Shown: positions 3,372 through 50,707 of the stretch, in pieces | Position numbering within the stretch: position 1 is the stretch's first letter | Layout of the letters: each line of letters starts with the position of its first letter | Sequence record: ON528725 | DNA from: Shigella phage ESh15 | Direction: 5' to 3' (one strand) | Length of the DNA: 64,000 nucleotides | Notes under the pieces: generated by a model | What the model saw: only the letters and a program-made list of their open reading frames with translations | What the model was told of the DNA's origin: nothing | The model's database searches: none | Translations under genes and position numbers: made by a program

Positions 3372-3536
3372 TATAAATTCTCTTTAAATGAAAATGCAGG
3401 ACTTATTGACATTGCCTGCGCAAGCCCTCAAGGGGAACATAGGTTTTTGGATATTTAACGACCAGGATAACCATAAACCCGTCATCATACCAACCACGAC
3501 TTAGACAGATAACCTTTTTCTGACGCGTGATAGCAA

Positions 3537-3785
3537 TTATTTCAAAGTAATAACAAAATGACGAACTGCTTTACGAGCTGCTGAAGCCAAAGGCTTAGCA
3601 TATTTCAGTTCATCTTTTGCTTCCAGTTCAGCAGCCAGAGTAGCCTGAGCAGGATTCAGATGTTTGAAATAACGCAGGATTTCCAGTGCTTCGGCTTCAA
3701 CATCAATTGAAGCGCCGTAGTTTTCGTGACCGTTATTCCATGCGTTGCGTTGCAGTTCAAGAGCGTGTTGTAATTGTTTAATCAT
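3537..3785 (-). CDS. rIII: rIII lysis-inhibition accessory protein
   Basis: 82 aa, same length and strong resemblance to T4 rIII as I recall it; position next to gene 31. Confidence 0.75.
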   Translation of the reverse strand: MIKQLQHALELQRNAWNNGHENYGASIDVEAEALEILRYFKHLNPAQATLAAELEAKDELKYAKPLASAARKAVRHFVITLK

Positions 3786-3901
3786 TTTAAATTCTCAATT
3801 CGAGATAATATTTAGTAGCCACGTTCTTCTGAATTTCACCTTCTTTCGACAAGTCTCTCAGTTGTAGGCTACCGCTTAGAAGAGTGTTCTCTTCATATAG
3901 T

Positions 3902-45892: not shown

Positions 45893-46321
45893 TTATTCCT
45901 TAAAATGTGCTTTCAACATTTGATACAAAGACCATGCCTGGTCGTTATTTTCGATAGTAATCGTCATCACAGGAAATTCAGACAATTCGTCAAGTTCACT
46001 AGAATCTTGCTCTTCAGACGCTTGATATGGATTTCCAACTTCGTCAAAGAACTCTGCTTCATTCGTGGAGAGCCAGATAAAGTTTTCATCAAGAATATCA
46101 CCGCCTGTTGCGTATCCAACCATACCAGTAGATGTCACAATTTTAGTAGGTCGTCCAAGATGGTCAACATCTAATACTTTAAATGGTTCCATGCCAAGAC
46201 GTCGTGCATAAATCCCATTATCAGTGTGGTTTTTAATAAACTCTTCTTGGGCACGTTTATCTTTAAATTGGTACCATGAGTTAACGCGGAATTTATTAGC
46301 CATTAGTAAGTTTCCTTCCAA
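45893..46321 (-). CDS. hypothetical protein (goF position)
   Basis: 142-aa track ORF in the position of T4 goF; identity not confirmed. Confidence 0.4.
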
Positions 46322-46575
46322 TAAGTTGTACCATTTTCAGTGATTTCACGGAAGATACCATAGATAGGCATTTCATCACCGAGTTTTTCGTAAACGTAAA
46401 CCACTTCAGTGTAGCATAAAAATTCAGTCCAGTTTTTCTGTACAACAACTAAATCAGGATTAAACAGAACATCTTCAAACTCATCGATGTTTGAATCAGT
46501 AGTTACGTTTTTAATGATTTGACGTTTCATAATATTCTCCTCTTGTTTTGATAGGTCTATAGTATCATAGACCAT
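46303..46575 (-). CDS. hypothetical protein (cef position)
   Basis: Track ORF; real start probably an internal Met. Confidence 0.35.
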
Positions 46576-46587
46576 AGTTGTTGTACA

Positions 46588-47112
46588 TCATTTTAGCAAA
46601 ATAAAATCAACTTGTTCTGCCAATGAACGTCTGAACATTAATTGACAACTTCCGAGGATGAAATCAGGTGCTTCATAGACCGCGATGTAGTATCCTTTAG
46701 CTTTCAAGAGTTCAACATCCACCTGGTCATCAAACCATGCATAAACCGCGTCAACACTTTCAAATCCAAAATAGAACCCTTGAGCCCAATCTTCACTCAA
46801 TTCAAATGTGTGCTCAATTCTATAGTATCTTAAGATATTTTGTTCAAGGAGTTTATCTTCATTTACTGTAGGACGATTAGGGACATTATAGTTGTCGCCG
46901 TGATGGTAGAAATTACCTGAGAGTATTCCATGTTTATCAAGGAACTCCCATGTTTCTTCAGAGTTGTCGGTGCCTGACCAACCGTAAGGTGAGCGAGGTT
47001 CTTTATTCCAAGAGGTTTCCCAAATTCTGACGGCTTTACCGTCTTCGATGGCAATTCCTGGTAATGATTCACGTTGAGTACAAAAACTACGTTCTACGCG
47101 GTAAACTAACAT
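46588..47112 (-). CDS. hypothetical protein (motB position)
   Basis: 174-aa track ORF in the position of T4 motB; identity not confirmed. Confidence 0.4.
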   Translation of the reverse strand: MLVYRVERSFCTQRESLPGIAIEDGKAVRIWETSWNKEPRSPYGWSGTDNSEETWEFLDKHGILSGNFYHHGDNYNVPNRPTVNEDKLLEQNILRYYRIEHTFELSEDWAQGFYFGFESVDAVYAWFDDQVDVELLKAKGYYIAVYEAPDFILGSCQLMFRRSLAEQVDFILLK

Positions 47113-47138
47113 ATTATTCTCCTCTAGTCGATAGATTT

Positions 47139-47168
47139 ATAGTATCAAAACTAGAGGAGAAGTAAACA
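47139..47168 (-). promoter_or_regulatory. early promoter embedded in a 9-bp inverted repeat (PeSL-like cassette)
   Basis: CTCCTCTAG ... CTAGAGGAG arms at 47119-47127 and 47151-47159 flank the -10 region; GTTTAC at 47163-47168. Confidence 0.45.
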
Positions 47169-47171
47169 ACT

Positions 47172-47591
47172 TTATGCAAAAGATGCTGGACAATATTTTT
47201 TGATTTGGAACTCAGGAACTACCATGAACTGTCCAGCGAAAACGATGTTATAAAGCTTAACACCATCTTCTACCCATTGGTCGCTAATAAATCCGGCGAT
47301 TTGCTTAGTTTTCCATGGCGTTCCATCAGTTGCAGAAGCAATAGTAAATTCATGGTCTTTTACAACTAAAACAGACCTGCATAGTCCCCATTTGAACGCT
47401 TTTTCTTCTGGTTCAATGAATTGGCTTGAGACGTAGCCAATGTTGCCATCAGCATCACGAACTTTAACTTGATGCGGACTAAAGAGTCCACAACTTACAG
47501 AAAGAACTTCAACCAACTTCCCAGCAACTTTAGAGCGAGAAGCAACAGGTACATATACGTAATCACCTGTAGAGAGATTTGCAATATTCAT
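47172..47591 (-). CDS. paralogue family member 1 (139 aa)
   Basis: Shares SRSKVAGKLVEV, FKWGLC and C-terminal GFISDQWVEDG.KLYNIVF.G.F.VV blocks with the next two ORFs. Confidence 0.5.
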   Translation of the reverse strand: MNIANLSTGDYVYVPVASRSKVAGKLVEVLSVSCGLFSPHQVKVRDADGNIGYVSSQFIEPEEKAFKWGLCRSVLVVKDHEFTIASATDGTPWKTKQIAGFISDQWVEDGVKLYNIVFAGQFMVVPEFQIKKYCPASFA

Positions 47592-47600
47592 AATAATTCC

Positions 47601-48149
47601 TTAAGCTTTACGAGGAGACACATAGCGAGTGATTTCAGATTCTTCAACAACTCGGAAGTCACCTAAGAATACAATATTGTATAGCTTTTTACCATCTTCA
47701 ACCCATTGGTCGCTGATGAAGCCGCACATAGTATCAGTTTTGCTTGGATAACCATATTCGTCGATGAAATCAAATTCTTTATCAGTCTGGAATTCAACGC
47801 CTTTGCAAAGGGCCCATTTGAACTGTGCATTATGCTCTGTAGATTCAACTTTTTCTCTTGAAGCAAAAGCACTACTCACAGGCGTTTCCAAGAACTTTGC
47901 ACGAACATAAGCAAATTGGGTTTCCTGTGTCCCAAAACTAGGAATAATACGAACTTTTACCTCAGAATCTTCATCTTTAACGCCTTCTTTAAGTTGAATA
48001 CTTACAACTTCGACCAATTTTCCTGCGGCTTTAGAACGAGATTTGTTAGATACGCGAACGATTTCACCAATAATACCAAGATTCATAATTTCTCTCTCTT
48101 TGTTTAAATTGAATTCACTATACTCCATCCATCCTTGGATGTACAACAT
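47601..48149 (-). CDS. paralogue family member 2 (start probably internal, about 161 aa)
   Basis: Same conserved blocks as 47172-47591. Confidence 0.5.
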   Translation of the reverse strand: MLYIQGWMEYSEFNLNKEREIMNLGIIGEIVRVSNKSRSKAAGKLVEVVSIQLKEGVKDEDSEVKVRIIPSFGTQETQFAYVRAKFLETPVSSAFASREKVESTEHNAQFKWALCKGVEFQTDKEFDFIDEYGYPSKTDTMCGFISDQWVEDGKKLYNIVFLGDFRVVEESEITRYVSPRKA

Positions 48150-48640
48150 TAATTTAGAATATTAACCACAGCACTACGTGGAACTACACTAAAATCACCG
48201 GCATGAACAACGTTCAGAAGTTCAACCCCATCTTCAATCCACTGGTCAGTTACCCAGCCACTTACTGGACCAGCGAATGGGCGTCGAATTGAAACAGCTT
48301 TACACAACAAATCAGTAGGCTCAATAGGCTTAATCAGAGTACCATACATACAAGCGATATCCATATCAAAGATGTCTTTAACTGGTTCTACTTCTTCAAT
48401 CAACAGTTCAAAGTCGGTGCTTGGAAGGGCGGTAGTAGAAATTGTACCGTATGAATTTTTAATTTCTAAGAATAACCAAGGGCCTTCAGCTTGTTTGATG
48501 AAGTTAACAATAGTGAAACTATTACCTTGAGTGGCACCTAAAATTTCACAAAACTTTTCGTAAGCTCGCACTGAAGCACCGTACCAGTTGATTTGTTTTT
48601 CGTCTTTCAGGATGTAAGTAGCCATAGCAGTGATATTCAT
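48149..48640 (-). CDS. paralogue family member 3 (163 aa)
   Basis: Shares the C-terminal GWVTDQWIEDGVELLNVVHAGDFSVVP block. Confidence 0.5.
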   Translation of the reverse strand: MNITAMATYILKDEKQINWYGASVRAYEKFCEILGATQGNSFTIVNFIKQAEGPWLFLEIKNSYGTISTTALPSTDFELLIEEVEPVKDIFDMDIACMYGTLIKPIEPTDLLCKAVSIRRPFAGPVSGWVTDQWIEDGVELLNVVHAGDFSVVPRSAVVNILN

Positions 48641-48671
48641 AATGTTTTTCCTGTTTGGTTAAGATAGATTC

Positions 48672-48701
48672 ATTATACTCCAACCATCCTTGGTTGTAAA
48701 C
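48672..48701 (-). promoter_or_regulatory. early promoter (GTTTAC-N18-TATAAT) with CAACCA-tcc-TTGGTTG palindrome in spacer
   Basis: Plus-strand attata at 48672-48677 and gtaaac at 48696-48701. Confidence 0.45.
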
Positions 48702-48706
48702 TGTTT

Positions 48707-49384
48707 TTATCGCTGTTTTACACTTAACGGGTCAGGATTCTCAGGGACATCTTCAAGGCCAAGCGCATAACGCTGAGCATATTTTAACATCAAAATATCT
48801 TTAGCACAATCGTGAATACTATCATGGGCAACGAATCCTTTTAGCGCACCCATCGGTAATGGACACATACTTAATCCTCGTGTCAACGAGTAAGCTTCGA
48901 TTGCCGTACGAATATCGCGTTGAGCCCAGAATTTAACAGGTTCTAATTTATCAGTATCAATATCTGGTTCAAGAACACCTTCATCACGATAGAGGTCACG
49001 AATCAAATCGACCAATATCGGGAAGTCAAAGCTCATACCACGGCACCACATCTGTGATTTCCATTGGTCAACTTTATTAGCTCGACAATAATCTAAAAAG
49101 ATTTTAATGCCTTCAAGCGTAGTGACATCGTCTTCAGACGGAGCCAGGTTTTTACGTGCTTCTGCTGATTGTTCTTTCCACCATTTCATAGTGGATTTAG
49201 CGAAAACTCGCTTCCCTTTCTGAGAAGCTAAATTAAATTTAATTCGCTTACCTCGTTGAACAAGTTCTTCGAATGTTTCAACAACTTCAGGGTCGGAATT
49301 ATATGCAATAACCGCCAGGTCAATAACAGCCGCTTTTGATGTATTGCCGAATGTTTCAAAATCTATAATAACATCAGTGCTCAT
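48707..49384 (-). CDS. dexA: exonuclease A (DEDD family)
   Basis: 225 aa; N-terminal IIDFETFG exonuclease motif; size and position as T4 DexA. Confidence 0.85.
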   Translation of the reverse strand: MSTDVIIDFETFGNTSKAAVIDLAVIAYNSDPEVVETFEELVQRGKRIKFNLASQKGKRVFAKSTMKWWKEQSAEARKNLAPSEDDVTTLEGIKIFLDYCRANKVDQWKSQMWCRGMSFDFPILVDLIRDLYRDEGVLEPDIDTDKLEPVKFWAQRDIRTAIEAYSLTRGLSMCPLPMGALKGFVAHDSIHDCAKDILMLKYAQRYALGLEDVPENPDPLSVKQR

Positions 49385-49393
49385 AATTTTCTC

Positions 49394-50707
49394 TCAAATA
49401 AAATGGACGTCAAAACGACCACGAGTCGTGCCGACATACAATAACTGTTTAGCTAATTCTGAATCGGCATAATGGATACACGGTGTATAAACAAAGGCCG
49501 TGTCAACAGACATACCCTGGGCCTTATGGAAGGTTGATACTGGTAGTGCCTTTACCTTAGTGAACATACGTTTAGCATCCCAGAATTCACTCCATGGAGC
49601 TTTACCACCTTTATTCCAGAATTTGTATGTTTCTGCTGTCTTAGCCAAAAACAAATTGAATTTATAAAGCTCTTCTTCAGAAGAAATAACCTTTATATCC
49701 TCGCGGACGTATTCTTCATCATCACCGTATGTTTCTACTGTAAGATTCCAGTATCGTATCATATATTCGCCTGAAACACCACGTGCTTTAACGAATGTAG
49801 ACGTTTCTACAGCGTCTCGAATACGAACGAATTGCCCGTTATTGAAAAGCATTTCGGTCATATTTTTGCCATCTAGCTTATATGTCTTAGTAAATGGCTC
49901 TTGTAGAACAATGACTTCGTCTTTAATAAATGGTTTTTCTGTTTCAAGAAGTTTTCGGCGAATAATTGAATTTAACTTGTCCACCGACTTATTTGTGAAT
50001 GCCATCATTCGATTTTCGAAAAGGTCTTCAGGAGTTTTAACGACATTAAAATAGTTCATCATATACGATTTAAGGTCTGTATATCTATGAACACCGTGCC
50101 CGTCAACTACTTTATCGTAAATCCATTTGCCATTACGAATATCAGTCGCAACATCAATAATTGGTGCATTGCTACGTTTAACTTCTGTAAGGTTGCATTG
50201 CACGAAGTCTTTGTGAGTGAAGAAAGGACTTAGATACGCAGTTGATTCGCCTGGGTCTACCGGTCGAATCTGGCATCTGTCGCCGATTCCAATTACTGTA
50301 CACCATTTAGGGATACTAGCTAACATTATTTTAAACAGAGAACGGTCACACATTGACGCTTCATCAAATAACAGTACACGGCACAAGGCTAAGTCTGGAA
50401 CCTTTTTCTGTTCAAATAATACGTTTTCTTCGTATGTAGTTGGGTTGATTTTAAGAATGCTATGAATAGTCGATGCTTCTTGACCTGCAAGTTTGCTTAG
50501 AACCTTTTTAGCAGCGTGTGTTGGTGCTGCTAAAATAATACCTGATTCTCCAGAAGAAATAAGGGCTTCAACGATGAATCTAGTAAGGGTTGTTTTACCT
50601 GTACCTGCAGGTCCATTAATAGTTACGTGATGTTTCTTTTCTTTAATAGCTTTCATAACAACGTTGAAGGCGTTTTTCTGGCCTTCAGTCAAGTCATCAA
50701 ATGTCAT
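49394..50707 (-). CDS. dda: Dda DNA helicase (SF1B)
   Basis: 437 aa; Walker A GPAGTGKTT; near-identical N-terminus to recalled T4 Dda. Confidence 0.95.
   Translation of the reverse strand: MTFDDLTEGQKNAFNVVMKAIKEKKHHVTINGPAGTGKTTLTRFIVEALISSGESGIILAAPTHAAKKVLSKLAGQEASTIHSILKINPTTYEENVLFEQKKVPDLALCRVLLFDEASMCDRSLFKIMLASIPKWCTVIGIGDRCQIRPVDPGESTAYLSPFFTHKDFVQCNLTEVKRSNAPIIDVATDIRNGKWIYDKVVDGHGVHRYTDLKSYMMNYFNVVKTPEDLFENRMMAFTNKSVDKLNSIIRRKLLETEKPFIKDEVIVLQEPFTKTYKLDGKNMTEMLFNNGQFVRIRDAVETSTFVKARGVSGEYMIRYWNLTVETYGDDEEYVREDIKVISSEEELYKFNLFLAKTAETYKFWNKGGKAPWSEFWDAKRMFTKVKALPVSTFHKAQGMSVDTAFVYTPCIHYADSELAKQLLYVGTTRGRFDVHFI

Follow-up and report, generated by a model that had tools for sequence, protein, structure and literature searches.

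The three adjacent open reading frames (ORFs) at 47172-48640 of the window, the whole 64,000-nucleotide stretch of Shigella phage ESh15 (record ON528725) analysed here, very probably constitute the motB.1–motB–motB' cluster of an RB69-like (Mosigvirus/Carettavirus) T4-type phage, with the anatomy, expression and function proposed below. The family is already known, as are the C-terminal domain common to its members and the additional motB copy of RB69-type phages, since section 3.2 of Patterson-West et al. (2021; PMC7827196) describes a C-terminal domain that is shared among proteins with different N-terminal domains and, in RB69, two copies of motB plus one of motB.1. As a discovery, the three-gene cluster matters little; it is a real but ordinary feature.

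The cluster is part of a block of early genes in a T4-type phage, and all genes in the region are on the minus strand:

45893-46321, minus strand: goF-like gene
46303-46575, minus strand: cef
46588-47112, minus strand: MotB.2 homologue, 174-aa ORF
47172-47591, minus strand: second MotB paralogue, 139-aa ORF
47601-48149, minus strand: motB, mechanical ORF of 182 aa (the homologous start gives 47601-48086, 161 aa)
48149-48640, minus strand: MotB.1 orthologue, 163-aa ORF
48707-49384, minus strand: dexA
49394-50707, minus strand: dda

A sequence-only reading had reported three adjacent ORFs, in an early accessory region that adjoins dexA, and both points are borne out by the coordinates and the neighbouring genes: with cef, the goF-like gene, dexA and dda as its flanks, the cluster belongs to the early cef–dexA region of a Tevenvirinae-type genome. 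Between 46300 and 49400 the window shares 96.9% DNA identity with Escherichia phages phiE142 and phiC120, 96.4% with Mosigvirus ESh27 and 95.9% with Shf125875, another RB69-like phage. Gene order and annotation are the same in RB69 and phiE142, with RB69 reading motB.2, RB69p010, motB, RB69p012, motB.1, dexA, while T4 has a single motB and reads cef, motB, motB.1, motB.2, dexA; the synteny of the cluster holds with both RB69 and T4. A tblastn search across the 64-kb window returned no fourth copy of either domain.

Gene identities and start sites

The middle ORF is 58% identical to T4 MotB over its full length (E 1e-59) and matches Pfam motB (PF17613) at E 1.1e-53, which identifies it as the motB orthologue. 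The earlier placement of all three ORFs 'between motB and dexA' is thus mistaken, as the middle one is itself motB, and the gene presumed to be motB at 46588-47112 is, from its similarity to T4 MotB.2 (34% identity; phrog_1106), a MotB.2 homologue unrelated to the other three; its Smith-Waterman scores against them are at chance level. The 182-aa motB ORF is probably an over-call. We take the gene to be 47601-48086, encoding 161 aa, because T4 and RB69 MotB start at a methionine homologous to the ATG at 48086, because this ATG is preceded by GAGAGAG, and because a promoter-like site (described below) falls inside the 21-codon extension.

The 139-aa ORF matches Pfam motB at E 4.3e-21 and phrog_1671 at E 1.5e-49, is 36% identical to T4 MotB and has RB69p010 as its counterpart in RB69. 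Homology identifies it as a second MotB paralogue that is full-length but has a shorter loop and linker: a loop within its N-terminal domain is missing, as is most of the linker. The 163-aa ORF, in turn, shows 39% identity in a 127-column alignment with T4 MotB.1 (E ~4e-27) and aligns with phrog_2333 end to end (aa 1-163, E 5e-79), and by the same kind of evidence is the MotB.1 orthologue, in which an unrelated N-terminal domain is fused to a MotB-type C-terminal domain. The SRSK.AGK-bearing N-terminal KOW/SH3-like domain that characterizes MotB proper ('Category 1') is present in the 161/182-aa and 139-aa proteins, and neither BLASTP nor tblastn finds similarity between these and the N-terminus of the 163-aa protein, which is therefore classed as MotB.1-type and not as MotB proper.

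The shared C-terminal domain and its history

The sequence-only reading had also claimed a common C-terminal block in all three proteins and further blocks, SRSK.AGKLVEV and FKW.LC, in the first two, and pairwise alignment supports both. In BLASTP comparisons the 139-aa and 182-aa proteins are 42% identical across 158 columns (E 4e-29), an alignment that includes the SRSK.AGKLVEV and FKW.LC blocks, while the 163-aa protein has 57% identity to the 139-aa protein in an alignment of 30 aa (E 2e-11) and 44% to the 182-aa protein in one of 36 aa (E 3e-10). The corresponding Smith-Waterman scores are 227, 107 and 97, as compared with means of ~28-29 (sd ~5) for shuffled sequences, and the observed score was reached in none of 2000 shuffles. 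All three proteins also pass the gathering score of 25 bits for PF17613 ('Modifier of transcription'), at 181.8 bits for the 182-aa ORF, 75.9 for the 139-aa ORF and 34.4 for the 163-aa ORF, the last through its C-terminal part only. Each carries the signature G(F/W)(I/V)(S/T)DQW(V/I)EDG..L.N(I/V)V, at these positions:

48182..48259, minus strand: shared block of the MotB.1 orthologue, GWVTDQWIEDGVELLNVVHAGDFSVV
47646..47723, minus strand: shared block of MotB, GFISDQWVEDGKKLYNIVFLGDFRVV
47217..47294, minus strand: shared block of the 139-aa paralogue, GFISDQWVEDGVKLYNIVFAGQFMVV

The homology is wider than this 30-aa block, as the Pfam motB alignment covers ~66 residues of the 163-aa protein (aa 93-158), and a three-way alignment reveals an LC(K/R).V motif upstream of the block that is likewise common to all three. 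Core columns of the C-terminal domain, DQW.E.G..L.N.V, are invariant in three family alignments (A1, A2, A3).

AlphaFold2 (AF2) models built on family alignments, with mean pLDDT of 77 for MotB and 80 for the MotB.1 orthologue, each predict a pair of beta-rich domains with a low-confidence linker between them. For MotB these are an N-terminal barrel (aa 1-67) and a C-terminal beta domain (aa 88-161), with segment 70-86 below pLDDT 50; for the MotB.1 orthologue they are aa 1-85 and ~105-163, with residues 86-97 below 50. A linker motif was found in or beside the latter low-pLDDT segment:

48326..48370, minus strand: linker motif FDMDIACMYGTLIKP, aa 91-105 of the 163-aa protein

Of 265 family proteins, 94 have a D.D(I/V)..(M)Y-type motif, near the N-terminus in 72 and internally in 22; among these 265, MotB proper lacks it.

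The modelled C-terminal domain has a short helix before its last strand, as in SH3-like barrels, and the models resemble Tudor/KOW-type SH3-like barrels, a suggestive likeness that draws on predicted structure. Sequence identity to the Tudor, KOW, PWWP and chromo SH3-like barrels concerned (for example the 53BP1 tandem Tudor, Spt5 KOW and NusG C-terminal domains) is only 10-20%, and the likeness is one of fold, which does not show that the proteins belong to these families or read methyl-lysine. Searched by sequence against solved structures, MotB alone gave nothing usable and the C-terminal profile gave one match, at E 1.3. An HHpred-based prediction in PMC7827196 assigns the MotB C-terminal domain an OB fold of the cold-shock, DNA-binding type, and that paper leaves undecided which of the domains binds DNA. 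An OB-fold domain is named in none of the 60 listed matches of either model, a suggestive difference from that prediction; since the fold searches used whole two-domain models, these matches are not attributable to one domain or the other. Taken together with the report of Kim et al. (2025; PMC12152347) that the N-terminal domain of MotB.1 is LSm-like and related in fold to GoF and Frd.2, we propose that MotB and its 139-aa paralogue would each consist of an N-terminal KOW/SH3-like barrel bearing SRSK.AGK, a flexible linker and a C-terminal beta domain, and that MotB.1 would carry a different N-terminal beta domain (LSm-like according to this literature) on the same C-terminal domain of ~60-75 aa.

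The C-terminal domain appears to be confined to few protein clusters, as a profile of the three copies, searched against 1.84 billion representative proteins, matched only 28; the 26 strongest clusters have it at or close to the C-terminal end of proteins 43-251 aa in length. The N-terminal parts, or heads, of 260 collected members fall by BLAST grouping into a KOW-like group (138 proteins), a long type of 158-251 aa (91 proteins) and a MotB.1 type (29 proteins), with a tandem pair of head modules in the members of 241-251 aa. MotB.1-type C-terminal domains also occur with KOW heads (P0059 and P0068), one protein (P0175) is a chimera of a MotB N-terminus and a 139-type C-terminus, and another (P0258) is a 43-aa deletion fusion that runs from the start of MotB.2 to the tail of MotB.1. 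Given this variety of heads, together with the chimera and the fusion, the comparisons identify the cluster as a place where duplication, deletion and recombination are active while the C-terminal domain stays constant. Such a variety of heads on one constant acidic C-terminal domain offers a testable idea of how these host-takeover proteins are built.

How the three genes came to share this domain can be read in several ways. Chance or low-complexity resemblance, for which only the short length (~30 aa) of the best-conserved stretch could be cited, has a vanishingly small probability and is refuted by the E-values of the two shorter alignments, the shuffled scores and the matches above the Pfam threshold. 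A recent tandem triplication of one small gene, diversifying toward different host targets, would fit three adjacent genes that lie on one strand, share a motif and sit in what in T4 is described, in section 3.2 of PMC7827196 and in PMC6070864, as dispensable early DNA. All paralogue pairs are however saturated in synonymous differences (pS 0.66-0.86), and the shared block is only 53-68% identical in nucleotides between copies, with dN of 0.22-0.53. As dS saturation leaves the dN/dS of the paralogues not computable, orthologues in phiE142 were compared instead, giving 0.17 for MotB.1, 0.10 for MotB and 0.12 for the 139-aa copy, similar to dexA (0.10). Saturated synonymous sites and orthologue ratios of 0.10-0.17 together argue that the paralogues are old and under ordinary purifying selection, which contradicts the diversifying expansion that had been suggested. 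Furthermore, MotB and MotB.1 are both present in T4 and are reported together in 40 other phage genomes (PMC7827196, section 3.2), and most phage records with a MotB-family match have two or more MotB-family places, so the split between the two must predate these genera. With the third copy also unrelated in its N-terminal domain, a recent triplication is highly improbable; what stands of the proposed triplication is that the C-terminal parts are true paralogues, of which only two belong to full-length copies and the third to a MotB.1 with a different N-terminal domain. Of the 777 phage records with a MotB-family match, 206 have a copy with 80% or more identity to the 139-aa protein, and the rest have only more distant members. 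A neighbour-joining tree places the 139-aa clade as the long-branch sister of the Mosigvirus MotB clade, which hints at a lineage-specific duplication; we do not rely on this tree because it is unbootstrapped and contains the chimera.

It might also be argued that the common C-terminal block is a mobile domain cassette, exchanged by recombination between otherwise unrelated genes and not inherited through whole-gene duplication. The KOW heads on MotB.1-type C-terminal domains, the chimera and the deletion fusion, with the active recombination they indicate, speak for such exchange, as do MotB.1-type C-terminal domains 76-88% identical to that of the window in proteins of 165-250 aa, whose N-terminal parts differ since they match the window protein only over their last third. 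Against it, homology between the 139-aa protein and MotB extends from end to end, which is plain duplication, and the three blocks in the window are too diverged in DNA for recent mutual exchange. We regard a cassette origin as improbable, though less so than a recent triplication; duplication and exchange are in any case not mutually exclusive, and at issue between them is the history of the cluster, not its function. The reading that we prefer remains a motB.1–motB–motB' cluster of RB69-like type.

Promoters and frameshifted reference genes

Two early-type promoters were found within the cluster:

48672..48700, minus strand: early-type promoter upstream of the MotB.1 orthologue (TTTACA, 17 nt, TATAAT; 11 of 12 consensus matches)
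48117..48145, minus strand: early-type promoter-like site upstream of motB (TGTACA, 17 nt, TATAGT; 9 of 12 matches)

The window contains just three strict GTTTAC-N16-19-TATAAT sites, of which the promoter of motB.1, with the full form GTTTAC...TATAAT, is one. The site of motB, which sits within the 21-codon extension of the mechanical ORF, aligns with the upstream region of T4 motB. The 139-aa gene starts 9 nt past the motB stop, with an AAGGA ribosome-binding site that overlaps this stop, and no promoter-like site on the minus strand was found in the interval between these genes. Only two of the three copies thus bear out the claim that each has a promoter of its own, and the 139-aa gene is most likely co-transcribed as the second gene of a motB transcript, given how closely its start follows the motB stop. 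No MotA-box middle-promoter pattern occurs in 46500-49450. We propose that the cluster would be expressed early, from two sigma-70-type early promoters.

The promoters of motB.1 and motB also contain a near-identical spacer, CCAAGGATGG, and co-duplication of promoter and gene was considered as its source. This was rejected: the same spacer is found in another early-type promoter, at 1600, that is unrelated to these two, and it therefore has no bearing on co-duplication.

The intact motB.1 of the window bears on how the reference genomes are to be read. In the T4 reference, motB.1 (119 aa) ends within the shared block owing to one extra G (ATTGGAAGATGG, as compared with ATTGAAGATGG in T4 GT7, the window and phiE142); the next frame continues with EDGVELLNVVHAGEYSVVPRSAVVAILN to a stop, and the motB promoter follows directly after that stop. 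In a 15-billion-protein collection the truncated form of T4 MotB.1 is found on 2 contigs and the intact 143-aa form on 256. In the RB69 reference, this domain of motB.1 carries two single-base insertions, which yield a 132-aa ORF and the 29-aa RB69p012, the 'Category 3 peptide' of the 2021 paper (PMC7827196). These comparisons identify the 119-aa T4 MotB.1 and the 29-aa RB69 peptide as frameshift products of an intact gene like that of the window. PMC7827196 and PMC12152347 make no mention of a frameshift. T4 motB.1 knock-outs had no phenotype, and an RNA reporter was unaffected by MotB.1 (PMC12152347). If the annotated 119-aa form was used (its 13.8 kDa equals the reported monomer size), the published MotB.1 experiments would have tested a protein without most of its C-terminal module. 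The reference annotations mislead here, and the intact 143-aa form is advisable for functional work on MotB.1.

Proposed function and likeness to known systems

By orthology with T4 MotB, the 161-aa protein would most likely bind DNA without sequence specificity. Son et al. 2021 (NAR) are said, by the title of their paper, to describe DNA compaction by MotB. By the same analogy, the 161-aa protein would compact the nucleoid and alter the binding and silencing activity of H-NS, with a modest gain in phage yield. PMC6070864 describes T4 MotB as toxic to E. coli, as binding modified and unmodified DNA non-specifically, as co-purifying with H-NS and StpA and as having a 2-fold effect on burst size, which doubled, and PMC7827196 adds an altered H-NS footprint and 75 up-regulated host genes.

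The N-terminal domain of T4 MotB has a net charge of +5, while the C-terminal domains range from acidic to approximately neutral (pI 4.7-8.1) with conserved acidic D..ED residues. This distribution of charge suggests that the basic N-terminal barrel may supply most of the DNA contact, and, as positive charge lies in that barrel, that the acidic-to-neutral C-terminal domain may serve all three proteins for docking or self-association. On this C-terminal module would sit variable heads, either KOW-like or LSm-like, which would be exchanged via duplication, deletion and recombination. A stronger version, that the acidic C-terminal barrel is not the DNA-binding part but a docking or oligomerization module through which MotB, its paralogue and MotB.1 assemble with one another or with a host partner such as H-NS, is offered as a speculation that we consider rather unlikely to be right. 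If true, heads of the KOW type (DNA) and of the LSm-like type (possibly RNA) would meet on the nucleoid, and the phage lineage would change function by exchanging or duplicating heads while the anchor stays constant.

Among known systems, the 161-aa protein is closest to T4 MotB (PF17613, phrog_1671), an early DNA-binding protein of nucleoid-associated-like type that alters H-NS binding; the two share the two-domain layout, the location between cef and dexA and the early promoter. The two differ in charge, the window MotB being net acidic (pI 5.4, net -3) and T4 MotB basic (pI 9.2), so a DNA affinity equal to that of T4 MotB should not be assumed. T4 also has no second copy of motB, unlike ESh15. 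The MotB.1 orthologue, like T4 MotB.1 ('Category 2' of Patterson-West et al., 2021; LSm-like family in Kim et al., 2025; phrog_2333), is encoded directly upstream of motB, but it is intact where the T4 reference is cut, and it carries the DMDIACMYGTLIKP linker motif that T4-type MotB.1 lacks. The RB69 cluster is identical in gene order and content, and differs in that motB.1 is an intact single ORF in both the window and phiE142.

Reading frames and starts of motB.1 and motB

Relative to both T4 GT7 and the Shigella phage window (48149-48260), motB.1 of the T4 reference (NC_000866, positions 1643-1870 of its locus) carries one extra G within the shared block, the C-terminal stretch conserved in all three MotB-family proteins, leaving a product of 119 aa. 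The intact 143-aa gene is carried by T4 GT7 and by 256 other contigs, and the 119-aa reference form by only two. Published experiments reported a MotB.1 monomer of 13.8 kDa, which matches the 119-aa form. The RB69 reference (NC_004928, positions 3377-3873 of its locus) has two 1-nt insertions in motB.1 compared with the window and the close relative phiE142, resulting in the annotated 132-aa motB.1 and the 29-aa RB69p012. Since these insertions split the gene and yield RB69p012, the published 29-aa 'Category 3' peptide (PMC7827196) is the out-of-frame tail of motB.1.

For motB, gene callers have added 21 codons (MLYIQGWMEYSEFNLNKEREI, 48087-48149) that span the gene's own promoter, and the extended call begins at a TAATG overlapping the motB.1 stop; database entries for the MotB orthologue are 151 to 197 aa long, and differing start calls account for part of this spread. 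Early-type promoters at 48701, 48145 and 1600 (minus strand) have in common an unusual conserved spacer, CCAAGGATGG(A/T)T..GAGTATA. The window's MotB orthologue (47601-48086) is acidic (pI 5.4, net charge -3), unlike T4 MotB, which is basic (pI 9.2, net charge +6). Such a net acidic charge is unexpected in a non-specific DNA binder.

A recurrent linker motif, a chimera and a fusion protein

The 163-aa MotB.1 orthologue contains a short motif that recurs within the family:

48326-48370: short motif FDMDIACMYGTLIKP, aa 91-105 of the 163-aa protein

The motif and its variants are found in 94 of the 265 MotB-family proteins collected, at one of two sites: N-terminal, ahead of a head module, or in the linker ahead of the C-terminal domain. 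This distribution is consistent with an origin in two-head proteins, the database protein P0049 being one example, followed by deletion; the motif could also be a peptide-binding motif. Among database proteins, P0175 is a chimera with the N-terminus of MotB and the C-terminus of the window's 139-aa paralogue type, and P0258, of 43 aa, has the start of MotB.2 fused to the tail of MotB.1; both seem to have arisen in other phages through recombination that deleted part of the motB cluster.

The MotB.2 homologue: upstream hairpin and gene order

The intergenic stretch that separates the 139-aa gene from the MotB.2 homologue holds a predicted RNA structure:

47117-47161, minus strand: hairpin with a 13-bp stem, about -20 kcal/mol, z -3.5

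The ribosome-binding site of the MotB.2 homologue, GAGGAG, falls within the 3' arm; GTTTAC stands immediately 5' of the stem and TATAAAT in the loop. This putative promoter escaped detection in a consensus scan. In some T4 genes the ribosome-binding site is hidden in read-through RNA and exposed in RNA begun inside the hairpin loop. Here, similarly, read-through RNA would hide the site, and RNA initiated within the loop would expose it.

The MotB.2 homologue (46588-47112) adjoins cef, downstream of the motB genes, as it does in RB69. In T4, by contrast, MotB.2 lies upstream, with dexA on one side and motB.1 on the other, a local gene-order rearrangement between the two phage groups.
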